Positions 21,283 through 40,916 of a DNA stretch of 64,000 bases are shown piece after piece (the first letter of the stretch is position 1; each line of letters starts with the position of its first letter). Below the pieces are notes generated by a model, which worked only from the letters and a program-made list of their open reading frames with translations, was not told the DNA's origin and ran no database searches. The stretch is taken from NCBI GenBank assembly GCA_963716175.1, contig OY970296.1, positions 768,001 through 832,000 on the forward strand, read 5' to 3'. A program made the position numbers and the translations under genes. This stretch comes from an uncultured Armatimonadetes bacterium. GTDB taxonomy: Bacteria > Armatimonadota > Hebobacteria > Hebobacterales > Hebobacteraceae.

Positions 21283-21415
21283 TGGGACACCCCTGAGCGG
21301 CCTCTGAGCTTGCCTGCGGGCGAGGATCAGCCCTACACGCGGGCGACCCTCGGGCCGGTGCCTCCGAGCCGAGGGGTAGCCGGAGTCGGGGGTGCCCGAG
21401 GCCGTCGCCCAGGAG
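21283..21415 (+). repeat. Longest copy of the dispersed repeat; its 5' part recurs at 17501-17585
   Basis: tgggacacccc..cggcytctgagcttgc is shared with 17501; followed by the hairpin CCTCGGGC...GCCCGAGG. Confidence 0.7.
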
Positions 21416-21500
21416 CTTCGCCGGGGTGGCCGATGGCCCTGCTCGATAGCGGGACACCTGTGTTCCTGGGGGATGACTGCGGCCTGAGCGCGAGTGGAGC

Positions 21501-21660
21501 GATAGCTCAGATGGTAGAGCTTACAGCAGAGGCTAGCACACCTGAACTGAAGACGACGATCGGGTGCCGGGTTAGCTCAGGTGGTAGAGCTTACAGCAGA
21601 CGCTAGCATACCTGAACTGAAGACGACGATTGGGTGCCGGGTTAGCTCAGGTGGTAGAGC
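21501..21660 (+). repeat. 70-bp tandem repeat (about 2.3 units) including the tRNA-Phe 5' end
   Basis: 21501-21570 and 21571-21640 differ at 5 positions; TAGCTCAGRTGGTAGAGC occurs three times. Confidence 0.9.
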
Positions 21661-21711
21661 GCGGGACTGAAAATCCCGGCGTCCCCAGTTCGACTCTGGG
21701 ACCCGGCACCA
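21636..21711 (+). tRNA. tRNA-Phe (GAA)
   Basis: GCCGGGT/ACCCGGC acceptor stem, CTGAAAA anticodon loop, TTCGA T-loop, encoded CCA. Confidence 0.97.
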
Positions 21712-23207: not shown

Positions 23208-26200
23208 TCACCCCGTCTCCCCTTGAGTCCCCGCGGCCGTCATCTCTGCCGTCTCCGTGTCCGCCGCCGCCCTACGAGTCCGTCGCCACGCCACAATCGC
23301 ACCCCACACTGCCACGATCACCAGAGATCCACTTGCCACGAGCAGCGCTATAGCGCTCACTCGATGCGCGGGAAACGCCCAGAACTCCGCCCCCTCCCCG
23401 AAGCCCACAAGCAGGAGTGCTGTCGCCGCCAGTGTCAGCGGGTTATAGCGAAGCGCCAACGCGTATAGCGCCCACACTGCCCCAACGGCCAACATGGCAC
23501 CCGTTCCATCGGTCACCATCGCTCGCCAGCCCGTTGCCTCGGCCAACGTGGGTATCAGCGTCAGCGCCGCCAGGCAGATGAGCGCCCGCCGCTTGCTGCC
23601 GAAGGTCGCCTTGCTGAAGGCCACCATCGCCGTCCACGCCAGCACCGCTACCAACGCCGCGGCCACTCCGGCTAACGCGGCGACCACCCCCGGCAGGTAG
23701 CCGGAGAGGCTTAGTGGCGGGTCCTTCACGGCCACCGCCGATAGCTTCACCATCCAACTCGGGACCGTCACATCCCCGCTCCCCAACCAGCGCACGGGCG
23801 GCAGGCCCATCTCCAGCCCCTCTGTAACCGCCGCCACCACCAGCACTACCCCCGCTACGATCACCTGTGCCAAGATCGCCTCTCGCCACTCCGCCCAATG
23901 CTGCCTAGGCCCGCATACCGCCTCCCACCAGTGCCGCGGCCCTGGAATCGCCCCCAGGTGCGCTCGCCACAGCGCCACGCTCGGCGGTAGGGCCGCGAAC
24001 AGCGCCGCCCCCGCTAGGAGGAGCAGTACCACCACTCCCATTGCCTCCGTCGCGAGGAAAGCCATGGGCGCCGTGGTAGAGGACAGATCCGTCAACGAGG
24101 TCCGGTACTGCAGCGCCGCTACCACCCCCACAAGTGCCGCCAGCCCTGTTACAGCTCTCCCTGCCCACCTCCACTCCATTCGGTACCGTCGCACCGCACG
24201 GAAGTAGATCACGACTCCCCAGATCACGATTGCAGTCCACCCTACTCCGCCCGCCGCGGCAAGGACGGTTCGCCACGGCCTCTCCTTCGCCCGGTCGAAC
24301 TCGAACGAGTCGGGTGGCGTTATGGAATGCTCCAGCCACTGCGCTAGCCCGTCATCGACGGTCACGGCCGTGATGAACTGCGCCTCTCTTACGTGCAGTC
24401 CCTTGGGCGCATAGCGGAAAGTGTAGCTTCTCCGCTTCGGGTAGTCGTGTTGCTCCTGCCCCGTGAGTTCGTAGTGTTCTGCCCTGATCCCGGACGCGAG
24501 TAAGGCATGTCTTGCAAGACGCTCGGCCTCCTCCTGGGAAGTTGCCCGTCCCGGAGCCTCCTCAGGCAGGACGTGACCGACGTCCCAGATTCCCCCTTCG
24601 GGCCGCACCAGCACATCCCACGACTCCCGCGCCAGCGGCCTCTGCCACCGCACCCGCCACAGCCACGACGGGGGGTTCGTGCGGAGCAGCAGCCCTTCCA
24701 CATCGCCGGGCCGCAGGTACTGACTCAGATATGCCAGCGCCTCCGCGTCGGCCCCTTGTTCCTCCACCCGCGCTCCCATCACCGATCCTTTGACTTCTGC
24801 TCCCTTCATTGGCAGTGCCGCCGTCGCCCGCCGCACTGCCTCCGTTCGAGCCACGTACCGCGCGTAGACCGCGCTCTGCCCTGCTTCCGCCCACCGGAAG
24901 TGCGCGTCCTGGTGCTTCACCCCTTCCAGCACTCCGAGAGCTCCGCCGCCGATCACCGCCAGCGCCCCCCCTATCACCCATGCCCGCCGGGGAATCGGTG
25001 TCCGCTCAGGCTCCTCATTCCTCCTCGACGCGACCCCCTCTGCGGCCGGCTCCACCTTTTCTCGGCACCCTGGGTTCAGGGGCGCTGGCTCCCGCCCAAG
25101 CCCTCGCCGCGCCCACCATCCGGCCAATCCAAGTGGCGCCAGGATCAGTACCAGCACCACCAGGAAGCTCAACCGCGGTGCCCATATCACGCTCGTCAGG
25201 AACCCCGAACCCGCCAATACCGCGTTGTAGCTCGCGTGCGCCACCAGCGAGGGTAACACCCCATAGCGCACCAGCATCCACCCGAATACCAAGCCCCAAA
25301 TGCTTAGCTCGATCCCGCGGATGTAGAATGGCTTGTTCGGGTAGTTAGCATGCGCGAATCCCCACACCAGCGCTGGAATCAGAATCGCCAGCCAGTCGCG
25401 CTTCAGCCAGCGGCGCAGCCACGAGATCGCCACTACTCGGAATAGGAACTCCTCTGACAGCGACGCCTGTACTCCTACCAACAGCGCGTAGGCCCACGGT
25501 GCCGAAGTGCTGAACAGGTCCTCGTACCTGACCTGCGCTGGCGACCAGGCCCCGATCAGGCGCGAGGCCAGCGCGTAGAACACCGCTACGTAGGCGAGCT
25601 GCAGTGCCGCCAGAACATACCCAGCGAGTAAACGCTTTCTCCCACGGGGGCTGGCCAGCCCCTCCCGTGAGAACCAGTGCCACAACGTGACCTGGCCTGG
25701 GAATCCCCGCCGGTACCACCACTCCGCCCCTACGACCAGCAGCCACATCCCCAAGAATGCCCCCACTGCTCCCGAGAGGATCGCCGTCACCGTCCGAATG
25801 AGGAAGGTTGCGTCCGTATCCGTCGTCCCCTGCATCGCGCGCTGCAGGGGAAGCAGGTTCGCGGCGTTCAGCACCAGGATCGCCGCCAGGACGCCGGCCG
25901 GCCAGAGCCCGCGTCGCCACTGCAACTCTCGCCGTGCCGCCCCTATCACTAACCCCACCAGCGCCACCACCAGGAACCCCGCCGACAGCACGGCCGCGAT
26001 CTTCGCCAGCAGTTCGCCCTTCTCGTTCTCCCGGTCGTAGCGCTGCCAGAAAGCCTCAGGCACGTCCACCCAGCGGCTGTAGGACACCACCCGGTCCCCG
26101 GTCACCGTCACCGCCACCCGCTGTGTCGCCTCTCCCAACCGGAACCCCCGCCGCTCCCAGACATACTGGTAGTCGCGGCGCCTTGGCTGCGGTACCTCCG

Positions 26201-26702
26201 ATTTCTGCTTCAGATCGTAGCCTGCGAGGTCGATTTGCGCAGTCCGCTCTGCGAATGCCCGCGCTAATGCCTCTGGGCGCGTGGATCTCGGCGCCGGTGC
26301 ATCGTTCGGAAGTCGTTGCGAGTAGCCGATGATCCTGCCGTCCGGGTCCACCGACACCCGGTACTGAGTCTGCTCCCCTGGCTTGAACCACCGCACCCGC
26401 CAGGCGTAGACGAAGCCGTCGTGCTGCAGTACCTGGTTCGCCCGCGCCAGGCCCAGGGTCTGTTCCAGGTAGGCCTTCTCGTAGTCGCTGGTGATGAACC
26501 TGCTGCTCCGCCGGTACCCCCGCGGAAGCCGAATCCCCTCCTGCCGCAGAAACCCCTCTGCACGCGCCTCCGCGCCGCCCTGGAACACTCGCATCCGCAG
26601 GGCCGCCATCGGGACCACGTAGGGATACAGCCACACGAATACGGTCACCCCTGCGACCGCTACCGCCGCCATCACAGCCACCGACCACCGACGCGCCTGC
26701 AT
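23208..26702 (-). CDS. Large CPBP (CAAX/Abi) intramembrane metalloprotease with a duplicated extracytoplasmic domain
   Basis: SEEFLFR, WGFAH and AHASYN motifs; two similar W.VRW..P...V.V.P.G....LP..AP domains; many TM helices. Confidence 0.88.
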   Translation of the reverse strand: MQARRWSVAVMAAVAVAGVTVFVWLYPYVVPMAALRMRVFQGGAEARAEGFLRQEGIRLPRGYRRSSRFITSDYEKAYLEQTLGLARANQVLQHDGFVYAWRVRWFKPGEQTQYRVSVDPDGRIIGYSQRLPNDAPAPRSTRPEALARAFAERTAQIDLAGYDLKQKSEVPQPRRRDYQYVWERRGFRLGEATQRVAVTVTGDRVVSYSRWVDVPEAFWQRYDRENEKGELLAKIAAVLSAGFLVVALVGLVIGAARRELQWRRGLWPAGVLAAILVLNAANLLPLQRAMQGTTDTDATFLIRTVTAILSGAVGAFLGMWLLVVGAEWWYRRGFPGQVTLWHWFSREGLASPRGRKRLLAGYVLAALQLAYVAVFYALASRLIGAWSPAQVRYEDLFSTSAPWAYALLVGVQASLSEEFLFRVVAISWLRRWLKRDWLAILIPALVWGFAHANYPNKPFYIRGIELSIWGLVFGWMLVRYGVLPSLVAHASYNAVLAGSGFLTSVIWAPRLSFLVVLVLILAPLGLAGWWARRGLGREPAPLNPGCREKVEPAAEGVASRRNEEPERTPIPRRAWVIGGALAVIGGGALGVLEGVKHQDAHFRWAEAGQSAVYARYVARTEAVRRATAALPMKGAEVKGSVMGARVEEQGADAEALAYLSQYLRPGDVEGLLLRTNPPSWLWRVRWQRPLARESWDVLVRPEGGIWDVGHVLPEEAPGRATSQEEAERLARHALLASGIRAEHYELTGQEQHDYPKRRSYTFRYAPKGLHVREAQFITAVTVDDGLAQWLEHSITPPDSFEFDRAKERPWRTVLAAAGGVGWTAIVIWGVVIYFRAVRRYRMEWRWAGRAVTGLAALVGVVAALQYRTSLTDLSSTTAPMAFLATEAMGVVVLLLLAGAALFAALPPSVALWRAHLGAIPGPRHWWEAVCGPRQHWAEWREAILAQVIVAGVVLVVAAVTEGLEMGLPPVRWLGSGDVTVPSWMVKLSAVAVKDPPLSLSGYLPGVVAALAGVAAALVAVLAWTAMVAFSKATFGSKRRALICLAALTLIPTLAEATGWRAMVTDGTGAMLAVGAVWALYALALRYNPLTLAATALLLVGFGEGAEFWAFPAHRVSAIALLVASGSLVIVAVWGAIVAWRRTRRAAADTETAEMTAAGTQGETG

Positions 26703-26864
26703 CACGCCGCCCTCCAGCACGCGCGGTTCCGCCCAACCTTCGCCGCCACATAGCACCTGATGGCTTCCGCGCTCGGCTGCTACACGTGTGTCCGGGCCCA
26801 TAACACCGGTTCTGGGTTCACCTCAGCGTGGGCAAGACGACCTGGCGGATAGCCACCCCTTATC

Positions 26865-27920
26865 TCACACTCCATACCGCTCCCCGAGATACTCCGCCAG
26901 CGACGGCAGTGCCCCGCTCCCGCGCAGTGCGCCCGCCAGTTCCTCCGCCGCACAGGCGCGGATATGATCGGGATCGGCCAGCAAGCCCTGCCAGGCCCGA
27001 ATCACGTCCCCGTCACGCGACTGCCGCAGCGAGGTGTTCCCGCGGAAGTGAACCACCGCCACATCAACCCGCTCCACCCCCCTTTGCTGCGAGAGAAAGG
27101 CGGCCAGCAGATGCAGTCGCAGGAGTTGGTAGAAGGCTCCACGGAAGGGACAGACCCGGCCCTGGTAAGTGGCCAGAGTGATGCCCGCGTCCGTAAGGTG
27201 TTCCCAGTAGTGCCGTTGCACGCGGTCCGAGCCCCCGCTCTCCAGATAGCAGTTCCGCTCTGTCGGAGTGGTGCCGCCCGGCCACTGATGGCAGTCCCGC
27301 TTGTCGACGTTGCCGCGTGAGGCGAACCCCCCGCAGGTGCCGAACTGGCGCTCCGTGTACTTCCACTCCACCAGCGTCAGACGGCGGCCGTGTGTGTCTC
27401 TCCACCAGAATGCGGCATCCGCGCTGGTGCGGTTCGCGCCACGCCTGCCGCCCGGCGGCTCCCCGAGCCACTGCGTCGCGGCCTCGGGCCCGGTATACTC
27501 GAACTCGATGCTCGTGACCTGGGACACGCCCGAGAGTAGCGGGGCCAGCGCCTGTGCCGCTTGGTCCAGGTTCGCCTTGAGCGGGAAGAGGAAGTTCAGG
27601 CAGCAGATCTGAGAACTCCGCAGATTCGCCGCCTCGCGGTGCAGGGCGATATCGCAGGCCCGGAAGTAGGTCTGCACCGGCTCCCGGATCTCAGGCCACA
27701 GCGTCTCATAAGCATGGTCATGGGGCAGTACGTACGGATAGCGGTGGACCGTGTCCCGCGGCCCGGCCCGCTCGCCATCCGGCACGTTGGGCCAGTGCCT
27801 CCGCTTGAACTGCGCCTGACGGGCCGTCTCCGCCCGCTCGAAGGCGTTCAAGCGGGAGAACCACGTCTCGTCGCCAAGGTCCGGAGAGTCAGACGGCAGC
27901 CGGTGATGGATGACGCTCAT
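26865..27920 (-). CDS. PD-(D/E)XK nuclease, PGN_0703-like putative restriction endonuclease
   Basis: NLRSSQICCLNF, FEY, RTSADA, LVEWKYTE, YQLLR; ATGA overlap with the upstream gene. Confidence 0.75.
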   Translation of the reverse strand: MSVIHHRLPSDSPDLGDETWFSRLNAFERAETARQAQFKRRHWPNVPDGERAGPRDTVHRYPYVLPHDHAYETLWPEIREPVQTYFRACDIALHREAANLRSSQICCLNFLFPLKANLDQAAQALAPLLSGVSQVTSIEFEYTGPEAATQWLGEPPGGRRGANRTSADAAFWWRDTHGRRLTLVEWKYTERQFGTCGGFASRGNVDKRDCHQWPGGTTPTERNCYLESGGSDRVQRHYWEHLTDAGITLATYQGRVCPFRGAFYQLLRLHLLAAFLSQQRGVERVDVAVVHFRGNTSLRQSRDGDVIRAWQGLLADPDHIRACAAEELAGALRGSGALPSLAEYLGERYGV

Positions 27921-28720
27921 CGGATGTCCTCCGCAAGTGCAGCCTTGCCAAACGCCTCTGCCAGCAGTGCCCTGCTCTCCGGGCACCCGGAGGAGAACAG
28001 GTCGCGCACCTCGGGGTTCACGCCGCTGCCTCTGAGCTCGGCCTTAGATGATGGCTTCTGCCATCGCTCCCACTGTCCGCGCAGCCACAGATACCGGTCG
28101 AGTTCACGGTAACTGCAAGAGAGCCCGGCCGCGACACGGAGCCGGTCAATGGCGGCGAGGTACTCGGGGTAGTCGCTTGGCTTGTTGGCGTAAGTGTGCG
28201 CGTGCGGGCCGAGATGCAGCCTGATTGCTGCAGCCGCGAAGTCGTCGAGGATGGCGAAGCGGCACTGGCTCACAAAGAAGTGGCAGTACTTGCTCGCGAA
28301 GCTGAGGAACCGACGACTCTTCTTGTGCTCCCCGAGGTCGTGGAGCCATGCGATCTTCTCGACCACATCGACCCCCGGCTGGTCGCCAACCTCCGCTAGG
28401 ACTTCGGCCACGTGCTTGGCCATGGCCTGAATCGCCAAGACACTCGTAGCGTAGAGCGAGTTGAGCACGATAGCCTTCGGGAGCACGTGCGCGACACACG
28501 TGTTCGACGGGAAGTGCCGGGCCAGCGCGGCCAGCACCTCTTCAGCGCGCTGCCAACCTCGAAGGTGGAGTCGGTGCAACTCGTTGGCGGCATGAACGTG
28601 CCGTTGGCTCAGCGGCACCTCGAGGACGGCTCGTTGTTCCGTCTCTCCTCCGTGTACGCTCACCCTTGCTCTTTCGGCACCGCCCCAAGTCGGCGCTTCC
28701 CGGCTATCCTCTCGCCGCAA
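27917..28720 (-). CDS. Hypothetical protein, helix-hairpin-helix DNA-glycosylase-like
   Basis: LNSLYAT, SFASKYCHF, AILDD, YRELDRYLW pattern; true start may be GTG 28663. Confidence 0.6.
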   Translation of the reverse strand: MRREDSREAPTWGGAERARVSVHGGETEQRAVLEVPLSQRHVHAANELHRLHLRGWQRAEEVLAALARHFPSNTCVAHVLPKAIVLNSLYATSVLAIQAMAKHVAEVLAEVGDQPGVDVVEKIAWLHDLGEHKKSRRFLSFASKYCHFFVSQCRFAILDDFAAAAIRLHLGPHAHTYANKPSDYPEYLAAIDRLRVAAGLSCSYRELDRYLWLRGQWERWQKPSSKAELRGSGVNPEVRDLFSSGCPESRALLAEAFGKAALAEDIR

Positions 28721-28754
28721 GCGTGGTTTGCGCGTCGACCACGCGGAACTCGGC

Positions 28755-30575
28755 TTAACCCGCGCTGATCCCCGCTCGCTGCAGCAGTGCAGTCTCCGTC
28801 AGAGGCGCCTGTCGTCTCTCCTCGATGTCTGCGAGCAACGGTCTGGTGTAGCGGATGGCTGCTTGCGCCACATGCATGGGGGAGACCTCTTCTGAATCCT
28901 CGAGGTCGGCGATGGTGCGGGCTACGCTCAGCGCCTGCACGCGGGTTCGCATGCTGACCGGGTACGGCAGCACGGCATGCAGGCACTCGGCAAGTCGCTC
29001 AGCCCCGTCGGAGAGGCCGAATAGGGCCTTGATCTCATCAGGCGTCTCAACCTCGCTGTTGAGCGCGCGACGCGTGCCGCCGAACCGCTCTGCTTGATGC
29101 TTCCGCGCTTTGACTACGCGGCTCCGAATATCCTGACTTCTCTCGCCGTCTCCGCGCAGGGCCAGAGCAGTGGTTGAGGAGTAGACTCTTACCTTCAGGT
29201 GTATCCTGTCCTCCAACGGACCGGAGAGCAGTTGCTCGAAGCGCCGTCGGACGCCCGGCCCGCAGATGCAGCGGTGACGCAGCTTGCTCGACCCGCACTC
29301 ACAGACGACCGCGTCCTGTGGGACGATCCGTCTGCAGCGCACGCACTGGTACTCGCCGAAGTAGCTACACCGACAGGGGTTCATCGCCGCGACCAGTATC
29401 AGGGCAGCCGGGAAGGTCACCGCGCCCGCGAGTCTGGTGACGATGGCCTTGCGATCCTGGAGTGGACCTCTGAGCTTCTCCAGTAACGGCCTCGGGAAGT
29501 CAGGGAACTCGTCCATGAGTAACACACCTCGGTGTGCGAGCGACACCTCTCCCGGCTCCGGGTCGCCTCTTCCGCCACCGAGCAGGGCCGCATGCGTCGT
29601 TCCGGGAGCAACCACGCGGAACGGCCTGGCCAGCACAAGCTCACCGTCCGACAGCAGGCCCTTTGCGCTCCAGATCCGGTTGACCTCCTGGATCTCCGTC
29701 ATGGCCAGCCGGGGATCGAGCGGAGGCAGTATCCCTGCCAGAGCCCGGGCAAGCAGAGTCTTGCCTTCCCCCTTGGGCCCGTACAGCAGGCAGTGGTGCC
29801 CGCCTGCGGCCGCGATCTCGAGGGCCCTCTTCGCCTCGCCCTGGCCGACTATCTGGCACATGTCGGGCGCGCCCTGCACAGCGTTCTTGAAGTCAGGGAG
29901 AGCCCTCCGACGCACAGGGCTCAAGCCCTTCTCTCCGGCTATCACCCCGACCGCCTCCCGCAGCGTGGACACGCAGTAGATCTCAACATCCTCGCGGCCG
30001 CACGTCCTAGCCCAGAACTGGGCCTCCCGGAGGTTCTGCTCCGGCACGATCACAACATCGCCTGGTCGCGCGCTGTCCAGTAGGCTCAGCGCTCCGGGCA
30101 CCCCTCGCACCTCCCCCTCGATGTTGATCTCACCGAATGCGAAGTAGTCGCGGTTGGCGGAGGCCTCGAGTCTTTCCGCCCACTCGATGAGCTCGTCCAC
30201 CAGACCATAGTCATCGGGGATTCCCCCGGCAGCCTCGGCGGCATCCCCTCGCTTGGCCGCCCCCTGGTGTACATGCTCCCTGGTGGCTGAGGCAATCTCG
30301 GGCATTCGCAGGAAGATGGCGAGGGCCACCGGCAGATGTAGGGCCGAGTGTCTCTTTGGAAGGTCGACAGGCTCGAACTGCACGCTGATCCGCCCATTGG
30401 GCACCGGGAGCGCGCAGCTACCAAAGGCATGGGGCAGGATGGCCCGCACCTCCCGGAGAACCGGGCCAACGTTCCCGATCAGGGAAAGCCCCTTACCACC
30501 CGCCGCATCAACCTTGCAGTTGAGTCTCACACGCTGACTGCGCCAACCCAGCAGTACTGCACCGAAGCATGGCAT
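28755..30575 (-). CDS. ComM/YifB-family (Mg-chelatase-related) AAA+ ATPase/helicase, divergent
   Basis: GQGEAKRALEIAAAGGHH, GPKGEGKT, PGEVSLAHRGVLLMDEF, AAMNPC, SGPLEDR, VARTIADL; GGAGGA RBS. Confidence 0.9.
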   Translation of the reverse strand: MPCFGAVLLGWRSQRVRLNCKVDAAGGKGLSLIGNVGPVLREVRAILPHAFGSCALPVPNGRISVQFEPVDLPKRHSALHLPVALAIFLRMPEIASATREHVHQGAAKRGDAAEAAGGIPDDYGLVDELIEWAERLEASANRDYFAFGEINIEGEVRGVPGALSLLDSARPGDVVIVPEQNLREAQFWARTCGREDVEIYCVSTLREAVGVIAGEKGLSPVRRRALPDFKNAVQGAPDMCQIVGQGEAKRALEIAAAGGHHCLLYGPKGEGKTLLARALAGILPPLDPRLAMTEIQEVNRIWSAKGLLSDGELVLARPFRVVAPGTTHAALLGGGRGDPEPGEVSLAHRGVLLMDEFPDFPRPLLEKLRGPLQDRKAIVTRLAGAVTFPAALILVAAMNPCRCSYFGEYQCVRCRRIVPQDAVVCECGSSKLRHRCICGPGVRRRFEQLLSGPLEDRIHLKVRVYSSTTALALRGDGERSQDIRSRVVKARKHQAERFGGTRRALNSEVETPDEIKALFGLSDGAERLAECLHAVLPYPVSMRTRVQALSVARTIADLEDSEEVSPMHVAQAAIRYTRPLLADIEERRQAPLTETALLQRAGISAG

Positions 30576-30576
30576 G

Positions 30577-31176
30577 TCAGTCCTCCCGCATATGAGGGTG
30601 CTCCTGGGCGTGACAGGACTTACAGAGGAAGACCAGGTTGCCCTCTTCGCTTCCACCACCCCGGGAGACCGGGTGGGCGTGGTGCACATGCCCGTCGGGA
30701 GCGTAGCTGCCGCAGTTCTCGCAGACGAAGCCTATCCGCCGCCTGTACTGCAGTGAGATGAGGTGCCAGTCCTCGGGGTAGCCATCATCACGCGCGAGGA
30801 GCAGGCTGGCATCGGCTACCGTCGGCAGCGCGCGGATCTTCGACTGAACCTCACCAAGCTTCTGTGCATACCTACCGGCCCGCGTGAGCTCGCTTCGTGC
30901 TGCGGCGACCTCATCGGGTCTTGCCCGCCTCCGTCTTGTGGCCGGCGGCAGCCTCCAGCCCAGGCGTGCCAGCAACCACCGACCGCACCTGCGCCAGAAC
31001 GGCAGGGCTTCCTCACGACACGGCTCCCTGATGAGGCCGGTCTCCAGCGTTTCTTGGAGCGCCTGCAAGCGAGTGTGCAGCCAGGCCAACGTCTCCCCCA
31101 ACTGGTCGAGCCGTTCTCGAATGCTGACCCCCTTACTCGGCTGCACAGGATACTCGGATTCCGACTGCATAGGCAT
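30577..31176 (-). CDS. HNH endonuclease with coiled-coil N-terminus
   Basis: CENC...HVHH..PVSRGG....NLVFLCKSCH..EH; stop lies 1 nt before the ComM-like start. Confidence 0.85.
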   Translation of the reverse strand: MPMQSESEYPVQPSKGVSIRERLDQLGETLAWLHTRLQALQETLETGLIREPCREEALPFWRRCGRWLLARLGWRLPPATRRRRARPDEVAAARSELTRAGRYAQKLGEVQSKIRALPTVADASLLLARDDGYPEDWHLISLQYRRRIGFVCENCGSYAPDGHVHHAHPVSRGGGSEEGNLVFLCKSCHAQEHPHMRED

Positions 31177-31202
31177 CGCCCGTCAACTCTCGAACGCGGA
31201 GG

Positions 31203-33020
31203 CTACTTACCGGAGCGCAGGAACTCGTTCATGACCGTGGCCGGGTTGCCATCATCCCCAGTGTCCACAGGCGGTCCCTCGGTTGCCTGTGAACTCTCTC
31301 TACTGCTCTCATTCTGGTCCTGCCTGGGCGCAGGCGCGCCTCCGCGCTGGGGCGCTGTCTCTTCTTCGGCGGGTGGGTCTATCAGTCGCTGCCCAAGGTA
31401 CTTGATCCCCTTTTGAGTGATGGCCCACACGCCGCGTGGCGAGTCGCCCGCGAGCAGTCCCTGCTTCACCATCTGACTCTGGCTCCACGTTGCGGCATTC
31501 CGCCACCGAGGTGTGGGGTACGTGGACCCGACGGGTTCCGTGTCCTCGGGTTTGAGCTCCTCGCGGACAAGTTCATGGACCCGCTCCAGCACCTCCCGCG
31601 TCTGCGCCCTGCCGCCGAGCCCTCGCAGCGCGCGCAGGATCGGCACCACGAAGAACTCCGGCGGAGTGCGAACCCCACGAGGCAAGCGCTTGCGTCTCAC
31701 CCGCTTTCTCGTTGGCCTCTCTCGGGCAGCTCGCCTGGCGGACCGTGTCCCGCCGGAACTCAGCGAGGGTGCAAGGTCACCATTCCAGCGCTCTTCCATG
31801 GCCTCAGCCTCGCCGAGAAGCGCCTCCAGGCGCTCGCAGCCGAGTAGCAGTTGGCGCGCGGCGGCGTAGTCGCCCCGCCGAGAGGTCTCGGCGCTCTGCT
31901 CCCTCGCTTCGTCAAGCGCCGCCCGCATCTCCGTCAGCAGTAGGGAGAACGCTCCGCTCACGTCTGCCTTCATTCCGCGACCCCTCTCGCCGGAGGTGCT
32001 CTTCACTGTCTGTGTGATCGCCGTCGCGGTGAAAGTGAGCCCCAGCTCCTCCGCCAGGGATCGCCCGGACTCGGTCAACGTGTACGAAGAGCGCCCGACT
32101 CTCCGCACCAGGCCCGCGCTCTCAAGCCACTTGAGCCGGTAGGATGTCTGATAGGTCGTCCGCCATCCGTGCTGGACTCCCAACCGGGGATGGAGTTCGG
32201 CTACGCTCGCCGACCTGTCAGGGTAGATGCGGGCCACCAAGTCGGCGACCCCAGCGATCCGTTGCACCAGCAGCCGACCAACAACGAAACCGTCACCGGT
32301 TTCGGCGTACGCGGTGCCGTCCGGAGTCAGCATGACGGAGCCGTCGGGCCCTTTCCGCAGGAGGCCGAGCTGCACGGGGACCCAGGCGTAAGTGGCGGAC
32401 GCTTTCCGGCCACGTAGATGGTACTGAGCTGCCAACCAGGCGGCCAGCCTCTGCCTGTTCACTGAGCGACCGGCTGCAGACTCAGCGGCCACATACCTGA
32501 GCATCGAGCGGAGAGTTGCTGCATACGCACCAGCCCCTCCCGGCAGCGGCCAGAGGGCCGTGCGCGAAGCCGCATCTGAGACAGAACTCAGCGGGCCAGA
32601 GCCTGGTGCGTCGGTACTCGGAAGGTGCTCGCGCACGTCCCCAGAGACCGCGCCGGGAGTGGGCCTCGTCGCTGCCTCCTGGATCTCCTTGAGGGTACGC
32701 CCGGACTCGTCCTTCCACTCGATCCGCCCGTTGGCAGAACGCCCTAGTACTGCGATAGCCGCCATCGATGGTGATGAGAAGACGTGGTCTTGCCTGAACT
32801 CGAGATGCCTGCCGGCCCGCCTAAGGATACCCTCGGTCAGCAGCTCATCGCGCAGTCGCACACAAGCTGGCTCCAGAGACGGAACTGGCTCGAGTACGGC
32901 CTCGGAACCCCGAAGGACAACAAAGCCGTCCTCCACTGGGTGGCCTCTGGCCTTGATTCCCTTGCTCTCGATGATCAGCACTCGTGCTGGCCTCCGGCCC
33001 CAGAGCTGCCTGGTAGCCAC
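31203..33020 (-). CDS. DUF4357 plus winged-helix plus Mrr_N-like multidomain protein
   Basis: GFVVLRGSEA..FSSPSMAA.AVLGRSANGRIEWK; C-terminal PILRALRGLGG..RWRNAATW..MVKQGLL..SPRGVWAIT; start uncertain. Confidence 0.75.
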   Translation of the reverse strand: MATRQLWGRRPARVLIIESKGIKARGHPVEDGFVVLRGSEAVLEPVPSLEPACVRLRDELLTEGILRRAGRHLEFRQDHVFSSPSMAAIAVLGRSANGRIEWKDESGRTLKEIQEAATRPTPGAVSGDVREHLPSTDAPGSGPLSSVSDAASRTALWPLPGGAGAYAATLRSMLRYVAAESAAGRSVNRQRLAAWLAAQYHLRGRKASATYAWVPVQLGLLRKGPDGSVMLTPDGTAYAETGDGFVVGRLLVQRIAGVADLVARIYPDRSASVAELHPRLGVQHGWRTTYQTSYRLKWLESAGLVRRVGRSSYTLTESGRSLAEELGLTFTATAITQTVKSTSGERGRGMKADVSGAFSLLLTEMRAALDEAREQSAETSRRGDYAAARQLLLGCERLEALLGEAEAMEERWNGDLAPSLSSGGTRSARRAARERPTRKRVRRKRLPRGVRTPPEFFVVPILRALRGLGGRAQTREVLERVHELVREELKPEDTEPVGSTYPTPRWRNAATWSQSQMVKQGLLAGDSPRGVWAITQKGIKYLGQRLIDPPAEEETAPQRGGAPAPRQDQNESSRESSQATEGPPVDTGDDGNPATVMNEFLRSGK

Positions 33021-33596
33021 AGCAGCAGCGGTCGGTCACAGGGCTCCCACCGAAGTACTTGGCCGAGGACGTCGAGCGCGCGTGCGACATCGCGCCTGAC
33101 GAGACGCTCAGGGGAAGACGGTCCAGCGAGCGCAGACTTGCAGGGGCTGTGCCGGCACGCGAACTGAGAACGATACTGTGTTGCGGCCGCGTTGCCGACC
33201 CTACCGTCTGAAGGCCACCGCGATGGCGCGGTGATGCCCAACCGGGCATCCTGCCGCGGCGCTTGTAGCCTTGGCGCCGACATCCATCCTGGCTCGCCGC
33301 CAGTCTCGCCGATGGCCTCGCCCACCACGATCACCGGATCCCCTCTCCCAGTATGCGCGTCGCGCAGGGCTCATGGAAGGCGGCTCAGGAGGACGACTCA
33401 GCGGGGTGATCGCCTCTACTCAGTCTCTTCGATGTAGTGCGCTCGTAACCTGCCGGGGACCGCCTATAGCAGCCGATCTGACGTAGAACCGCCCCAACTC
33501 TGTCCTGACGGTCTGTCCTGCTGTATCGTGGGCACTCTATTTCGCTGGAGGCTGGAACCACAAGATGCGCGCAGCCCGCCGACCTAGACCCGACGG

Positions 33597-33665
33597 AACC
33601 CCGGCCGTGACTCCAAGCCAATGGGGTAGCCGGAGTCGGGGTGCCCGGGGCCGTCGTCCAGGATG
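33597..33665 (+). repeat. Dispersed imperfect-hairpin repeat copy
   Basis: ccccggccgtgactccaagccaatggggtagccggagtcggggtgcccggggccgtcgtccagga. Confidence 0.7.
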
Positions 33666-33763
33666 CGTCGGCGGAGTGGGAGGGATTACCTGCCGGCACA
33701 AGCCAGAGTCGGAAGAGGGGCAAGCACGACTAGGGCGAATCCTCACCGTAAGAGGGCTGGGCT

Positions 33764-34894
33764 GTGAAGCGCGTCAAGAGCATCGCTTACCGCTACCTTA
33801 CGGCCGCCGAGTTCTTCAACATCTATAAGCCGCGAGGAACGGAGCAGAGCGGCGGCGGCCAGACGTACATCGATTTCCCTATCCACGCCATACCCGCTGA
33901 CGCGTGGCCCGGTTTCTTTGGAGGCGTGAATGGCCTAGAGACGGGCCAGCGGACATACGGCCCTGAGTGGCGATTCCCCGTTGGCAGCGTCGGCGTGGCT
34001 CCGCAGAACCAGGCCGGGGATCAACAGGCTAGGATATACCAGCGGCGCGCGCAGAGCTTCACTATATCCGGCCAACACATCGAAGCCGACAGAGTAGCGG
34101 CGTGGCGTCCCGACCACGGCTTCCCGCAGCCCGCTAACCCAGAGGATCGGGACCAGCTACCCGAAGGGCTGTGTGTGTACCTGGTTCGCACGAGCGAGGG
34201 CGAAGTGTGGGCAGGCTGGTCCATCAACGGCGATGCACATCCATCGCCCTGCCAGGACGAGGCGGCAGAGGCGCTTCTGCACGAGATGCTTGACCCGGCA
34301 CGGAAAGCTGGTGACGCAGGTATCATAGCAGTGGAGGAAGGGACTCTGCTTCTCGATGAGGCGAACGCGCAGTCCCCGTTCACGGCGTCTCCAGTGGCCA
34401 AGGCCGTGATCACCGCAATCGCCGACGTTACGCAGGGCGATGAGGGAGCAGACGAAGGCCTTATCGGACGGCTCTTCGGGGAGGATGTCACTCGCGAGGG
34501 GAAGACTCAGCCCGACGTCATTCAGCGGGTACGGAAAACATACCGCCGGAATCAGAGGGCCGCGAAAGACCTAAAGGACCTTTACGGGTACGAGTGCCAG
34601 GTGTCCCACGAGCAGGGCTTCATGAAGGCCAACGGGTCTAGGTACATCGAGGTACACCATCTGGTACCACTTGGCGAAGACGGCGACGATGATCCTCTGA
34701 ACATGATAGTCGTCGATCCCAGAATCCATCGCATGCTTCACTACGCAGACGTTGACGGCGTCGAACTCCAGAACATCGAGCAGGCGGCCGATGGTACCGC
34801 CTCCCTCCAGATAACCATCAACGGCCAGCCGTATACCATCCGCTGGCACCCGGCGCATGCTGAGCGGATACTCCAACACCAGGGGAACCAGTAG
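33764..34894 (+). CDS. HNH endonuclease, putative restriction enzyme
   Basis: RNQR....LK.LY...CQV..YIEVHHLVPLG..G.D...NMIVV.P..HR.LH; convergent with two methylase genes. Confidence 0.82.
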   Translation: MKRVKSIAYRYLTAAEFFNIYKPRGTEQSGGGQTYIDFPIHAIPADAWPGFFGGVNGLETGQRTYGPEWRFPVGSVGVAPQNQAGDQQARIYQRRAQSFTISGQHIEADRVAAWRPDHGFPQPANPEDRDQLPEGLCVYLVRTSEGEVWAGWSINGDAHPSPCQDEAAEALLHEMLDPARKAGDAGIIAVEEGTLLLDEANAQSPFTASPVAKAVITAIADVTQGDEGADEGLIGRLFGEDVTREGKTQPDVIQRVRKTYRRNQRAAKDLKDLYGYECQVSHEQGFMKANGSRYIEVHHLVPLGEDGDDDPLNMIVVDPRIHRMLHYADVDGVELQNIEQAADGTASLQITINGQPYTIRWHPAHAERILQHQGNQ

Positions 34895-34896
34895 AC

Positions 34897-35982
34897 TTAC
34901 TTCAGCCGGACGTGAATCAGGTACTCCGTGACGGTAGGAAGGAGCCTGCTGTTGTTGCTCTTGAAGCGCTTGTGGCTGAACGTCTTCACCGTGACGTCGC
35001 CGAACTCCAGGAATAGCTCCCTGAGTTGCTCGACGTCCAGAAGGCCATCTTCACTGTAGCTGACAAGGAAATGCGGGCAGCGCATGCGGGAGAACACCGC
35101 GCGGAACGAATCCCGTATCCGCGTCTTGGTGCAGAAGTTCGAATACTGGTCCCGCCAGGGGCGCAGGCCGCTGACGCCGATGGCCTCCGGTTCGTCCTCC
35201 CGCGCGAGCGTCTCCAGTACGTGGTAGTTAGCCGCGTACTGCCGCTTCATGTACGGCGGGTCGATGTAGCACAGATCGCACTCGATCTCAGCCGCCACAT
35301 CCTCCGCGTACCCCTGGAGAACTCTGTGGCGACCAGCATCATCAGGCAGCACAAGCGGCGTTCGTGTCAGTTTGAGCGGCTCGTTTGCTCTTCCTGCCAG
35401 CCGTGAGAGGTAGTGCCCGTATGTTCCCGCGATGTTAGCCACATCATTGGCGGCCATGATGAGGTCATGGAGCAGGAGCGAGTGTTCGAGGTCGCTGATC
35501 TGCCGACTCTCACGGAGCCATCGGACGCACGCACGCATGCCGTCTATCTTCCGCGCATTCTCAGGCGAGAAGTAGTTCCGCGGCTTGGGCGTGTTCTGGG
35601 GCCGGCCGTCCCTGCTGAACTCCCGCCAGAAGTAGCCCTCCTGGGGACTGACTAGGTTCAGCGCCTGAATCATCGCCTCATACGGAGCGAGAGGAAAGAG
35701 CGTTTGGTGTCTTCCTCCGGGAAGCACCTGCTCGATGAACCCCCTCGCGTCAGCGAACTCCGGCATCGACGAGAACAGGAGCATCACCCGTGCATGGTGG
35801 TACGAGTACGTCATAAGGTCATTGGCCGTGACGCGGTATCCCTGTTCTCTGAGTGCCACTGAGACAGCGGCCGTTCCGCACATCAGGTCAGCGACGTGCG
35901 CGCGGTCGCCAACGGCCTCCCTGGTAGCCGTCAGCACCTCGTCTATGACCGCGGTTTTGACACCGATATACCGGAAGCCCAT
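34897..35982 (-). CDS. DNA adenine methyltransferase, D12/alpha class
   Basis: RYIGVK, DLMCGTAAV, YIDPPY..RQY..NYH. Confidence 0.9.
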   Translation of the reverse strand: MGFRYIGVKTAVIDEVLTATREAVGDRAHVADLMCGTAAVSVALREQGYRVTANDLMTYSYHHARVMLLFSSMPEFADARGFIEQVLPGGRHQTLFPLAPYEAMIQALNLVSPQEGYFWREFSRDGRPQNTPKPRNYFSPENARKIDGMRACVRWLRESRQISDLEHSLLLHDLIMAANDVANIAGTYGHYLSRLAGRANEPLKLTRTPLVLPDDAGRHRVLQGYAEDVAAEIECDLCYIDPPYMKRQYAANYHVLETLAREDEPEAIGVSGLRPWRDQYSNFCTKTRIRDSFRAVFSRMRCPHFLVSYSEDGLLDVEQLRELFLEFGDVTVKTFSHKRFKSNNSRLLPTVTEYLIHVRLK

Positions 35983-35995
35983 GCCGAGAGTCCAC

Positions 35996-37909
35996 CTACT
36001 TCGCAAAGATGTCGCGGATGCTGATCGTTCTGAGCGCGCGGACAGGGATGAGCTGTTCGACGCCCTCGAGCGTGCTGTAGATGAACCCATAGTCGCGCCT
36101 AGTCAACCCGTACAACTCGGCCACCATACGTTCCACACGGGCATCGACCGCGCCGGGTATGTCCTCACCCCGGGCCGTGTAGGCCTTCAGCAACTCCGCT
36201 ATCGACAGCACCAGATGCTTCTTGCCGCCGTTCAGGATGAACTGGGCAGGCAGAGGGAGGCCCAGAACCTGCGTCTGCGTCAGGTACGGATGGGACCGCC
36301 ACTCCGTCTCCCCATAACTCTTCACCAGGTAGTAGTACAAGGCCCTTGAGTTGAGCAGCCCCAGGAAGAACTCCAGTGGCAGAGATGCACCTTCCGCGTC
36401 GAGCGTCCGGAAGATGTAGACCACCTGGTTGGTGAATGCGCCAGAGTAGTCCATAGCCGCCGATATGCCCACCCCGGTCTTCCGGACGACGAGCTTTGGC
36501 TGTCGGTACAGGTTCCGATCCTTGTACTTGACGCCTTGTCTGGACGTGTCAATCCACAGCGCCGGCTGCGCGTGATAGCGCCTCACGCTCTCGCCCGTGA
36601 GGATGGCCTCATAGCCATCAACTGGCTCCCTGCTGGTGATCCGCACGATGGCCTCTGGGGTCACTGCCACCGATGCGCCGCAGTGACGGCACACAGGCCG
36701 CCGCGCGCTCGGGAGGGCTACCCACAGACCACAGGCCCCGCACTGACATACCCTCCCCGATTTGGACAGTTCCACCCCTCTGCTGCTCCACAGGTGATCA
36801 CGGAAGTGACTCCCCTGCGCTCGGAACTTCCGGAGGGTGGCCTCCTCGTCAGCCGTGATGTCGATGTCGAAAAGGTAGTCCGGGTTGTGAAGCAACCTCT
36901 CCTGCGCGACTGAGTGGCGCAGCAGACCTTCCGCCTCACGGAAACTCATCTGGCCCCCGATGATCCGCCGTCTGATCTCTGGAGTCAGCCGAAGGCACTC
37001 GGTTCGGGACTGCACATCGGGCTTGCCCTTCCGGCAGATAACGACGGCACATGCGCGGTTCACGTCGCTGAATATCCTCTCGCCGAATCTGCCGACGAAG
37101 CGGACCTGTGTCTCCTGCAGGAGTAGCTTCCGTAGAGATGTTCGCTCAAGGTTGAAGAGCGAGTCCGGCACTATGAAAGCGATGTACCCGCCCGGCCTGG
37201 TGATGGACAGCGCCAGTTCCATGAACAAGTCCGAGGTGTCGAACTGGCCCTGGAGGAGTGAGAAGTCCCGTCGCGACAGCCGCTCCCTGTAAAGCGAGAT
37301 ATCGGCCCCCCACGGTGGATTCGCTATCACTACGTCGAAGCCGCCCGGAGCGCCCATCCGCTCCCTGATCGCCGCCCACCCATCGCCGAGGGACCCCTCG
37401 CCAGATGGTGCCAAAGCATTGGCAGTGACCAGATGGAGGCAGCCGCTGCGTCTGCGCCGCGGCGGGATCAGTGCCCCAATTCGGGCCTCGGCGCGGGCGA
37501 CAGCAACCGAGTCGGCATCCACGCCGCAGAGGACAACACGCGGGTCGGTAGCCATCAGAGCAGCATGCAGTCCGGGCTGATCTTGTGAGAGCGCGAGGAG
37601 TTCTTGCCAGCAGGCGACGAGCAGTTCCCCGTCCCCACACGCAGGGTCGAGCACGCGCCACTTCCGTGGGTCAGGCAGAGCAGAACCGGACTTCAGCGGG
37701 CTATCGCCGAGGAAGTACCCTACGACCTTCGTCGCCACATAGCGGGCCAGGTCGCCAGGCGTGTAGACACTGCCGTTCAGCTTTCGTGCCTCGTATGTAT
37801 CGGGTACCGCTTGGAGGCCATTCGCCTGCCGAAGGAGGGCACTAGCAGGCTGCGACCGCACGCCGCGTCTGTGAGTCTCCCTCGGTGGTATCAATGCTCC
37901 GTTCGCCAT
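35996..37909 (-). CDS. N6-adenine DNA methyltransferase, gamma class (Eco57I/TaqI-like) with Zn-ribbon insert
   Basis: VYTP, LDPACGDG, IANPPW, TaqI-C-like KLVVRKTG; CGAC and CRHC. Confidence 0.9.
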   Translation of the reverse strand: MANGALIPPRETHRRGVRSQPASALLRQANGLQAVPDTYEARKLNGSVYTPGDLARYVATKVVGYFLGDSPLKSGSALPDPRKWRVLDPACGDGELLVACWQELLALSQDQPGLHAALMATDPRVVLCGVDADSVAVARAEARIGALIPPRRRRSGCLHLVTANALAPSGEGSLGDGWAAIRERMGAPGGFDVVIANPPWGADISLYRERLSRRDFSLLQGQFDTSDLFMELALSITRPGGYIAFIVPDSLFNLERTSLRKLLLQETQVRFVGRFGERIFSDVNRACAVVICRKGKPDVQSRTECLRLTPEIRRRIIGGQMSFREAEGLLRHSVAQERLLHNPDYLFDIDITADEEATLRKFRAQGSHFRDHLWSSRGVELSKSGRVCQCGACGLWVALPSARRPVCRHCGASVAVTPEAIVRITSREPVDGYEAILTGESVRRYHAQPALWIDTSRQGVKYKDRNLYRQPKLVVRKTGVGISAAMDYSGAFTNQVVYIFRTLDAEGASLPLEFFLGLLNSRALYYYLVKSYGETEWRSHPYLTQTQVLGLPLPAQFILNGGKKHLVLSIAELLKAYTARGEDIPGAVDARVERMVAELYGLTRRDYGFIYSTLEGVEQLIPVRALRTISIRDIFAK

Positions 37910-38125: not shown

Positions 38126-38330
38126 TCAGGCATCGCCAACCTGCTCTCCATGCTCGGCAGTCCAGTTCGCAAGAGACGTCCCCGGCTCGTATCCTGTGCC
38201 CACCTGGACGCCGTAGACCAGGATCGAGTCCTGAAGCAGCTTCGACAGGCTCATTCCGTGACTTCCGGCGAGCTCCCGCATCCGCTCGGCGAAGTGGCCG
38301 CGAATCGTCACGGTGAGCATTTGGCCGTGC
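38126..38330 (-). CDS. Small ribbon-helix-helix-like protein, possibly frameshifted at its 5' end
   Basis: MLTVTIRGHFAERMRELAGSHGMSLSKLLQD strand-helix-helix pattern. Confidence 0.4.
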
Positions 38331-38939
38331 GCACGTTGCCGCGAACGGCGCGCTACGTGCGCCTGTGTCGGGCTTTCGGCCGCCGGTTGGGGTTGTCCCT
38401 CGCGCTGCTGCTGTTCGCGGCGCTGTCGCCATGTCTGGGCGGCCTGTTGGGCTCCAGCATGGCGTGAGGGAAAGCCTGGACCCAGGACGCGCAAAGGCAG
38501 ACTCCTTGCCTACGTGAGGGGGTTCGTAGGCGCGATGGGAGCCTGCCCTGAACGGCGTACTCCGGACCGAGCTGGGCCACCTGCTCCAACATGCCGGACC
38601 ATGTTGCCCTAAGCAGCCAGGGTGCTCGGACCCGACCCAAAGACCCAAAGTATGCCAAGCAACTCGGTCCGCCCCCCCGCGGGACAGCCGGGCAATCCAG
38701 GAGAGAGCCTGGTCGGGGCTGCGTCGGGCATGCGATGTTGCAGGGAACCCCCGATAGAAGCCCCATTTCCGCGTGTTCCTCGGCGGCTGGTGGGTTGACC
38801 CATCTCGGCCTCGACCTCCTCTAGGAATCGCCGCTAGGCGAGCATCTGCGACCAAGAACGCCACGCTACGAGGCGGTCATGCCTGGCCGGGGTCGGTTCG
38901 GCTCGGGCTGACGATCTCGACCGCGACGTAGCCGCTTCG

Positions 38940-39377: not shown

Positions 39378-40283
39378 ATGAGACCCAACCAGTTCGCGGC
39401 AGCCGCCCGCCTAAGGAGGCAATCGAGAGGCGGGCAGTTCGTCACTGAGGGCGGCGTGAAGCACGCTGCTGAGAACCGATATTGGGTGAAAGGGGCCACG
39501 GGCAGGCTTATGGATGGAGAGACGACCTTCGTGCAGGAGGCGAGGGCCGCCGCGACCCCTTCGGCGTTTGGGTGCGCGATGATCGCGCAGCAACGGTACA
39601 CCGACGCGGAGATACTAGAGGCGCTCAGGGAGAGGGGACTGCACAAGACCCAGAAGGGGCCGAGCATCGGGAGGCCTATCACGCGCGATGACCTGAGGAA
39701 GTGGCGAAATCTGCTACAGCAGGGCAGATACCTGAAGTATGGCAGGCCCGCGTTCCGACTGGACGAGGTCCCAGAGCGGCCTGCCGAGGTTGGCCGACCG
39801 GGTGGATCTGAGACGCTCCGGAGAGGCCTAGCCCAGCTGTCAGAGTCGTCGACGGAGGAAGAGGCGCGCACAGTCATAGACGGTTTGGCACGAACGCGCC
39901 GCGAGACATCTGACAAGACGGCCGCCGAGCTTCTCAGAATGCTGTCCACGATGCCCGCCTATCCCCGCTCGGAGGTTAGGCGGACAACCACCACCCGCAC
40001 CAGGAATGTCAGTCTGTCGCGTCTACTCAAGGAGCTCTACCGGGGCCGATGCCAGATCTGTCGGCGGACCTTCGCGACTGAAGACGGCTCCCCGTACTGC
40101 GAGACCCACCACATCAACCCTGTCGGACTGGAGACAGCCCGGAATCTGCTCGTCCTATGCCCCACATGCCACAGGAAGATGGAGTACGCGCGGGTTACGG
40201 GGGCGCGTTCAATCCTCACCCGGAGAGAAGTGACTATCAACGGGAAACTGCATGCGGTCACGGTACATGAGGCCCATCGGTAG
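39378..40283 (+). CDS. HNH endonuclease
   Basis: RN..LSRLLKELYRGRCQIC..YCETHHI.P..NLLVLCPTCH. Confidence 0.85.
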   Translation: MRPNQFAAAARLRRQSRGGQFVTEGGVKHAAENRYWVKGATGRLMDGETTFVQEARAAATPSAFGCAMIAQQRYTDAEILEALRERGLHKTQKGPSIGRPITRDDLRKWRNLLQQGRYLKYGRPAFRLDEVPERPAEVGRPGGSETLRRGLAQLSESSTEEEARTVIDGLARTRRETSDKTAAELLRMLSTMPAYPRSEVRRTTTTRTRNVSLSRLLKELYRGRCQICRRTFATEDGSPYCETHHINPVGLETARNLLVLCPTCHRKMEYARVTGARSILTRREVTINGKLHAVTVHEAHR

Positions 40284-40529: not shown

Positions 40530-40690
40530 CCCTTGAGGCAACGGCGACGCGGCGAACCCCGCCACCAGCTTCCCCACTGCCGCCAGCTTCGTCCTCGTGT
40601 CCGAATGCAGGTAGCGGGCTGTGGTCTGCAGGTCGGCGTGCCCGAGAGCGCCTGCACGGTCCGCATGTCGACACCGCGATCGGGGGGGCC
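40530..40690 (-). pseudogene. C-terminal remnant of a tyrosine recombinase
   Basis: GVDMRTVQAL, then a frameshift, then GHADLQTTARYLH. Confidence 0.7.
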
Positions 40691-40916
40691 GGCGGCGACG
40701 GTGGCATCCTGGGCAATGGACCGCACCCACACCTCCACCTCACTCTCAAGCGCGGCCCTCAAGCCAACGTGACGCGCCGTTTTCGCGGCTTGGGGGGAAG
40801 AATGCTGGGAATGCCGCGATTCCGGCATTCCCGGCCGTAGATTCGCCTTGACGGGTTGGCCAACATCCGCCCTAGTGTCTTATCGGCAGTTGGCCGGGAG
40901 CCAGAAGGAGGCAAGG

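Follow-up and report, generated by a model that had tools for sequence, protein, structure and literature searches.

This report concerns a two-gene unit in a 64,000-nucleotide stretch of DNA, here called the window, from an uncultured Armatimonadetes bacterium (contig OY970296.1, positions 768,001 to 832,000). The unit comprises gene 3, which encodes a divergent ATPase motor of the ComM/YifB type, and gene 2, which lies directly upstream and encodes an HNH nuclease; both belong to a run of five genes, numbered 1 to 5 in gene order (Table 1). Judged by sequence, the motor is a rare lineage outside canonical ComM and is not a housekeeping ComM. The explanation that we favour, tentatively and at somewhat less than an even chance, is that a ComM-type ring ATPase and a stalked HNH protein form a two-gene core that acts as a motor–nuclease against foreign DNA, the three flanking genes being cargo. 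Held a little more loosely is the proposal that an old branch of ComM left transformation and became an anti-invader motor, the second zinc finger being its mark, with a stalked HNH and separate or fused DNA-recognition domains in place of DprA and YraN; this would be the first use of ComM in defence.

A ComM/YifB-type motor outside the canonical group

The motor is divided into a Lon-like domain that carries an acidic, helical insertion, an MCM-like AAA+ domain, two zinc fingers and a chelatase-C domain. Three Pfam families score over their cut-offs: PF13541 (ChlI, 39.3 bits, profile positions 8–77 of 121), PF01078 (Mg_chelatase, 211.9 bits, 1–171 of 207) and PF13335 (Mg_chelatase_C, 60.3 bits, 1–91 of 94). 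In the available part of a published survey, comM is defined by these same three families over cut-off, each covering more than half of its profile (10.1101/2024.02.06.579203), and the motor is a member of the ComM/YifB family in this broad sense. Its scores on the 644-residue open frame lie below the NCBIfam cut-offs for YifB equivalogs (TIGR00368, 298 against 362.4; PRK09862, 201.4 against 530). The best solved match is ComM of L. pneumophila (8rxd), both by sequence (expect value, E, 2.4e-47) and by fold (E 1.7e-19). A magnesium chelatase identity was rejected, as ComM is the best solved match by more than 40 orders of magnitude.

The ATPase site and the pre-sensor-1 hairpin arginine are intact in the motor (K272, T273, D355/E356, R369, R381, R457 and R543). 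Key residues of the L. pneumophila protein, as given in the sections available of its description, are K224, T225, the acidic pair of Walker B, R316, R328 and R463 (PMC11612176); these map by alignment to motor K272, T273, D355/E356, R369, R381 and R543. The intact Walker motifs reported by the first-pass annotation of this DNA are thus present, with K272/T273 in Walker A and D355/E356 in Walker B. Among the 31 variant rows of the alignment, K272, E356, R457 and R543 are invariant, R369 is kept in 30, and position 381 is arginine in 30 and lysine in one. A degenerate motor copy or pseudogene was rejected, since the residues are intact and the family is conserved.

Two additions, both also noted by that annotation, set the motor apart. 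The first is the expanded cysteine cluster, which consists of eight cysteines (401, 403, 411, 414, 425, 427, 436 and 438). Cysteines 411, 414 and 425 are found in 29 of the 31 variants as against none of the 26 canonical rows, and by sequence they make up a predicted second zinc finger that interrupts the first one. The second is the N-terminal insertion, which is real: 67 residues separate two anchors that are 24–29 residues apart in 23 of the 26 canonical rows. This spacing is 52–85 residues in 24 of the 31 variants, and three of the 26 canonical rows are also long. The insertion, at about residues 92–132 of the motor, is acidic among the close relatives and partly helical in the predicted model. 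In addition, two motifs are lost. The first histidine of the PHHT motif is present in 25 of 26 canonical rows versus one of 11 close relatives, and the basic residue of the C-terminal YR in 26 of 26 canonical rows versus none of the 31 variants.

Some of the wider double-zinc-finger variants end in C-terminal tails that are helix-turn-helix-like or zinc ribbons (P0016, P0138, P0140–P0143, P0146–P0148, P0150 and P0153). A zinc ribbon is over cut-off in P0143 and near it in P0146, and the helix-turn-helix matches in P0016, P0138 and P0150 are weak (E 0.08–0.2).

The host has a separate, canonical comM of 510 residues (C1:3800207-3801739), with the genome's only yraN 2.3 kb upstream. The motor is 35% identical to it. 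The first-pass annotation had taken the motor to be repurposed and had found neither yraN nor dprA beside it; indeed, some 3 Mb of the contig lie between the motor gene and yraN, and each of the genome's three dprA-family matches is elsewhere as well. With a canonical copy beside yraN, the motor gene is not the genome's only comM. Nor does the locus itself have the YraN partner of a ComM/YraN pair, the single yraN (PF02021) being the one beside canonical comM. The interval that holds yraN and canonical comM (C1:3797500-3801739) also contains two opposite-strand open reading frames, which separate the two genes.

Phylogeny gives the same separation. An alignment of 57 rows, in which 502 columns remained once those less than 70% filled had been dropped, gave a quick, unrooted LG+G4 tree; the close relatives P0006, P0010 (partial), P0011 and P0012 were omitted, as were P0147, P0224 and P0250. 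The 26 canonical rows, from several phyla, lie on one side with a support of 100 in the Shimodaira–Hasegawa-like approximate likelihood ratio test (SH-aLRT), which places the motor outside them; the 31 variants lie on the other. One row that was initially taken as canonical (P0188) groups with the variants and is counted there. The 11 close relatives of the motor form a group, again at SH-aLRT 100. Forcing the motor together with the host's canonical ComM was rejected (approximately unbiased test, p-AU 1.4e-11), and with it a recent duplication of the host gene. A single origin of all 31 variants is not shown, as it is weakened by possible long-branch attraction in an unrooted tree.

The lineage is rare. 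A search of 5.8 billion proteins, in which 8000 candidates were scored and the best 120 taken, gave 14 relatives at 46–71% identity, after which E falls from 3e-138 to 1e-94; when 1.84 billion representatives were searched with a profile, a wider set of similar variants was among the best 150. Of 400 genomes of the phylum (three candidates scored per genome) and 30 of the class (every candidate scored), none gave the motor, and none of 390 genomes gave a match to the HNH profile. This rarity fits accessory genes. When genome and metagenome contigs were scanned with the motor alignment, nearly all of the matches listed were canonical comM. Among 128 zinc-finger stretches at the retrieved loci, eight cysteines occur only in that of the window and in two other loci, L084 and L085. 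A DNA pattern for the zinc fingers, for which the host's own genome served as positive control, was absent from 351, 201 and 5 genomes of other groups; its 29 viral matches are all unrelated to the motor, and neither this pattern nor the alignment scan found the variant on viral contigs. On plasmids, 53 records match the motor, and the best 25 of these, at 29–36% identity, do not include the variant. Many of the canonical comM matches on viral contigs (L170–L189) end near query residue 399–417, several of them near the contig end, which is consistent with elements integrated into comM.

The HNH protein and its apparent pairing with the motor

Gene 2 scores 40.9 bits with Pfam HNH. In the predicted model a long helical hairpin (residues 19–115, with a short helix at its tip) takes up the N-terminal two thirds, and after it comes an HNH domain that is intact and has zinc bound. 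The motif CxxC..HH..N..CxxCH..H is present in all five full-length family members, and by sequence the active site is intact. The hairpin, which is non-catalytic, is conserved among the relatives as well. A fold search with the model returned nothing at E 0.001, and a clear membrane anchor was rejected (best 19-residue hydropathy 0.36–1.46). The protein weakly matches an endonuclease VII family (phrog_1035, E 5e-5), and its nearest clusters in the Atlas are mostly viral HNH proteins; none of its relatives was confirmed on a viral contig.

Pairing with the motor was assessed through the relatives of both proteins. Among 1470 candidates, four HNH relatives were found at 45–57% identity, plus one self-identical fragment. 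Two of the four lie on contigs that are equal in size and source to the contig of a motor relative: P0128 with motor relative P0002 (3243 bp, NCBI) and P0130 with motor relative P0007 (4505 bp, Logan). The other two are on contigs of 1040 and 1072 bp, which are too short to hold the motor, so that these relatives are uninformative. As a rough null, the 9785 pairs formed by 95 gene 4 contigs and 103 canonical ComM contigs gave one coincidence in size, from which two matches would be expected with a probability of about 3e-5. From these equal-sized contigs, the HNH gene and the motor appear to travel together.

Structure prediction of the HNH–motor complex gave a score of 0.35 as against 0.00 for the best control, with at least 76% of contacts common to the runs and a predicted local distance difference test (pLDDT) of at least 71 for the partner. 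The mark used was reached by 116 of 157 solved pairs and by two of 215 mismatched pairs; among these, 18 of the solved pairs and both of the mismatches were at 0.60 or below. The model is thus a weak hint that the HNH protein may bind the motor. The first-pass annotation had coupled the ATPase to several neighbouring nucleases, and this survives in part: the pairing with the HNH appears to recur, and gene 4 was never matched to a motor contig.

It is also conceivable, if distinctly unlikely, that the motor works alone or with varying partners and that the HNH gene is a hitch-hiker inherited in one sub-lineage, with no functional link. The low predicted binding score and the mostly viral Atlas neighbours of the HNH would suit this, as would the finding of an HNH for two of 14 close relatives of the motor and on one of 12 motor contigs of at least 4.4 kb. 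Against it, P0002 and P0007 are 57–65% identical to the motor and sit on both main branches of an eight-row subgroup, and both HNH relatives whose contigs could hold a motor match a motor contig in size. The conserved hairpin, having no catalytic part, also argues against a passenger.

Candidate role and comparison with known systems

To our knowledge, ComM is known only as a transformation helicase. How the variant might work can be proposed from what is known of its relatives. By homology with ComM and from the ComM structure, the motor would assemble as a ComM-like hexamer around DNA and translocate with ATP. Co-occurrence and the weak complex prediction suggest that the HNH protein would dock on the motor through its helical hairpin, in the place of YraN, and cut the DNA that is moved. 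Loss of the C-terminal YR motif suggests that loading would no longer depend on DprA at transformation D-loops, in which case another trigger would be needed. Here this could possibly be the gene 1 protein and, in other members, the fused C-terminal tails that resemble DNA-binding domains. The target may be phage or plasmid DNA, as suggested by the rarity of the lineage, by the nuclease and methyltransferase neighbours at this one locus and by the precedent of BrxL.

Gene 1 scores over the cut-off for DUF4357 (73.8 bits) and Mrr_N (63.6 bits) and falls just below it for a winged helix (20.8 against 21.4); no nuclease domain was detected in it by Pfam. Both DUF4357 and Mrr_N are listed, in the available text of a survey, among the domains commonly fused to McrB (PMC11090510), and for this reason gene 1 could be a detached DNA-recognition subunit. 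The protein has a mosaic make-up: the genome contains one set of paralogues for its DUF4357 part and another for the helical region with Mrr_N.

From its context, the pair likely acts in defence against phages or plasmids. Several points weigh against this reading. Context is all that a role in defence is drawn from, and adjacency and gene order in the relatives are inferred from contigs of equal size, not seen directly. An HNH partner was detected for only two of the 14 close relatives of the motor, and among the 12 motor contigs that reach 4.4 kb, 11 are without an HNH match; the missing matches may reflect the sensitivity of the search (a word index, restricted to proteins of 109–349 residues) or real absence. 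Neither an HNH nor a defence gene is present at L084 and L085, the only variant loci read (3.7 and 3.1 kb), which belong to a branch that lacks the insertion. PADLOC gave no match to the motor at E 0.001, and two of 15 motor rows weakly match mad8. The AAA+ core of the motor model is of low confidence. As for loading, in the part of the source available R497 of V. cholerae ComM pairs with DprA (10.1101/2024.10.21.619469); the canonical YR arginine is probably this residue, matched by position only, and the same text reports that R497E only reduced DprA binding and left transformation unaffected.

The same motor and nuclease would also suit a role in recombination, an explanation that we regard as unlikely, if less so than a hitch-hiking HNH, and as the main alternative to defence. 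Here the window pair would join ComM/YraN and RadA/CoiA as the third of its kind, a helicase with a nuclease that extends and cuts strand-exchange junctions, in the service of a mobile element or of gene shuffling. All of the motor residues are kept, canonical ComM itself works with a nuclease partner (10.1101/2024.02.06.579203, as far as its text was available), and the HNH protein has the weak similarity to endonuclease VII. Nearby there are also an integrase, a tRNA and copies of a dispersed repeat, and the genes beside L084 and L085 are not defence genes. However, the host already has comM, yraN and dprA matches, and YR and PHHT, which are conserved in canonical ComM, are lost from the motor. 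Neither the viral contigs nor the best 25 of 53 plasmid records yielded the variant, and its immediate neighbours in the window are nucleases and methyltransferases.

Mobile elements often inactivate comM, according to the available part of one study (PMC12378983), and this raises the idea of a mobile-element decoy that poisons the ComM ring of the host and so blocks curing by transformation. Such a decoy is very improbable: the catalytic residues are invariant across a deeply diverged lineage, and an identity of only 35% to the host ComM makes mixed rings doubtful.

The defence reading can be set beside known motor–nuclease systems. The first-pass annotation did not recognise a named system, and PADLOC-DB 2.0.0 likewise gives only domain-level matches and no full system: PDC-S14 on residues 12–116 of gene 1, ZorE on the HNH domain and nothing on genes 4 and 5. 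ComM/YraN is a helicase–nuclease pair of natural transformation, as described in the portion seen of the paper that defines comM (10.1101/2024.02.06.579203). The window pair shares with it the three-domain motor, the arginines of the ATP site and of the DNA loops, and the company of a small nuclease gene. It differs in that the motor lies outside the canonical group, with an extra zinc finger and an acidic insertion and without PHHT and YR; in that the companion is a stalked HNH, whereas YraN is PD-(D/E)XK; and in that the pair is rare and patchy, not widespread.

The annotation had also drawn an analogy to McrBC-type motors, which holds only as an analogy. Both have an AAA+ ring motor, a helically extended nuclease encoded by its own gene, and DUF4357 and Mrr_N domains nearby (PMC11090510, in part). 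In contrast, the window motor belongs to the ComM/YifB clade with a Lon-like domain and is not an McrB GTPase, its nuclease is an HNH and lacks DUF2357, and it is gene 1 that carries the specificity-like domains. Searches of genes 2, 3 and 5 with Pfam, PADLOC and NCBIfam found neither an McrB GTPase domain nor an McrC (DUF2357 plus PD-(D/E)XK). BrxL, as described in the sections available, combines an MCM-like AAA+ domain with a Lon-like domain and forms a DNA-binding ring in phage defence (PMC10164562; PMC12839542). The window motor has the same two domains, but with the Lon-like domain first, and the locus has no BREX genes beyond generic methyltransferase similarity; PADLOC and NCBIfam gave no match to the BrxL model.

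In Zorya type II, ZorD and ZorE form a defence pair of an ATPase and an HNH protein, and similar pairs exist. The window pair is similar in that an NTPase adjoins an HNH, and its HNH domain matches the ZorE models (E 1.7e-12). Unlike in Zorya, however, the match covers the HNH domain only (at most 31 bits, against NCBIfam cut-offs of 175–600), the ATPase family differs and ZorAB are absent. In the paper texts searched, no description was found of a ComM paralogue in defence, of YifB with an HNH or of a ComM-like pair. The single YifB match concerns AAA+ clades, in the part available (PMC7159879).

Whichever role applies, surveys that count proteins with the three Pfam domains as comM would include this lineage as well, even though both the protein and its partner differ. 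If the defence motor is real, it would be a new motor family in bacterial immunity, in which a machine for gene uptake is turned against incoming DNA. If recombination is its role, it would be a third helicase/nuclease pair for strand exchange. In addition, the natural loss of PHHT and YR indicates surfaces that tie canonical ComM to transformation. A two-gene construct of 2.4 kb makes the motor–HNH question directly testable.

Flanking genes and neighbourhood

The five genes are co-directional and closely spaced as first annotated, with gaps of 26, 1 and 34 nt followed by an ATGA overlap between genes 4 and 5; the HNH stop is 1 nt from the ComM-like start. GGAGGA stands within the last HNH codons, just 5' of the motor ATG, which fits the expectation for translational coupling. 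The start of gene 4 is uncertain, as its relatives align from about 28618 and the open frame runs from 28720; with the likelier start the gap between genes 3 and 4 is 136 nt.

Table 1. Positions of the five genes and of neighbouring features in the window
Feature	Position	Strand	Remarks
Gene 1	31203-33020	minus	605 residues; DUF4357, winged helix, helical region and Mrr_N; possible accessory
Gene 2, HNH nuclease	30577-31176	minus	199 residues; core; Pfam HNH
Gene 3, divergent ComM/YifB-type ATPase motor	28755-30575	minus	606 residues from ATG; core
Gene 4, PF27257 (HI_0787_N) protein	27917-28720	minus	267 residues from TTG; likely unlinked cargo
Gene 5, REase-ARP PD-(D/E)XK nuclease	26865-27920	minus	351 residues; likely unlinked cargo
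Restriction-modification-like cluster	33764-37909	HNH nuclease plus, two DNA methyltransferases minus	Pfam, PADLOC
Further HNH gene	39378-40283		neighbourhood
XerC/D-type tyrosine recombinase	40848-41825	plus	Pfam
Hairpin repeat copy	33588-33660	plus	separates the five genes from the methyltransferase cluster
tRNA-Phe	21636-21711		sole Rfam match

Four of the five initial gene labels are borne out by Pfam, the winged helix of gene 1 being weak. The label of gene 4 as a helix-hairpin-helix (HhH) glycosylase finds no backing: neither Pfam nor structure profiles (at E up to 10) gave an HhH match, and a match to OGG was seen for one of nine relatives and is weak (E 0.073). Gene 4 had nothing over cut-off in the first Pfam scan and belongs to PF27257 (HI_0787_N). 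It has no plasmid matches. Gene 5 scores 134.1 bits with REase-ARP (PF22558), also matches PDDEXK_13 and has the motifs FEY (140), SADAA (166) and EWK (185). No relevant paper was found for REase-ARP or HI_0787.

The tight, co-directional spacing might suggest a single defence system made up of three, four or all five genes, in which gene 1 reads modified DNA, the motor translocates and genes 2, 4 and 5 are effectors. This is more doubtful still than an HNH that merely hitch-hikes, and a conserved five-gene operon is contradicted by the distribution of its parts. None of 95 gene 4 relatives is on a contig equal in size to that of any of 33 motor records, although 39 of these contigs have the length to hold it; they include the 30-kb contig of the closest relative, which is 79% identical. 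In 300 kin genomes, relatives of gene 4 occur in ten and of gene 5 in five, with no genome in common, without the motor and with varied neighbours; the motor itself was found in none of the 400 genomes of the phylum. Paralogues of genes 1 and 4 also occur elsewhere in the genome, that of gene 4 (49% identical) beside unrelated genes. Genes 1, 4 and 5 are likely separate island cargo, unrelated to the motor–HNH pair.

The term island, used for the locus at the outset, is supported by the neighbours and by the patchy distribution, but not by base composition. The GC content of the region (0.65–0.67) is that of the remaining window, and at third codon positions it is 0.74–0.83 in the five genes against 0.86 in canonical comM. 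No sigma-70 promoter consensus was found in 26500-34000, where terminator-like sites are at chance level, and attC sites between the five genes were rejected, none being seen by eye in predicted folds (no dedicated integron tool was used). Contigs from public sequencing runs gave short pieces only, none of them spanning all five genes.

The cluster at 33764-37909 is likely a restriction-modification system, with methyltransferases of the D12 class and of an Eco57I/TaqI-like type that are convergent with the HNH nuclease. The hairpin repeat that precedes it is about 70 nt long and has 89 matches in the genome, which are clustered (e.g. C1:1.90-2.30 Mb) and mostly co-oriented locally; a second copy in the window is at 21340-21410. 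On the minus strand at 40562-40676 there is what remains of the 3' end of another tyrosine recombinase gene, which has several relatives elsewhere in the genome. Public-run contigs link 33640 with 38332 and, likewise, about 38400 with 40840 (80% likeness, possibly from other organisms). These suggest related elements in which a small gene (38126-38494) adjoins the integrase and the cargo of methyltransferase and HNH genes is absent; a paralogous pair is at C1:2242368-2243736.

On the other side, 63 nt downstream of gene 5 and co-directional with it, the gene at 23208-26801 encodes a large membrane protein that contains a protease domain of the CAAX (Rce1-like) type. Beyond it, within 21491-21711, two tandem 70-nt units that copy the 5' end of tRNA-Phe stand before the tRNA gene itself, and arrangements similar to this one are present at several other places in the genome.

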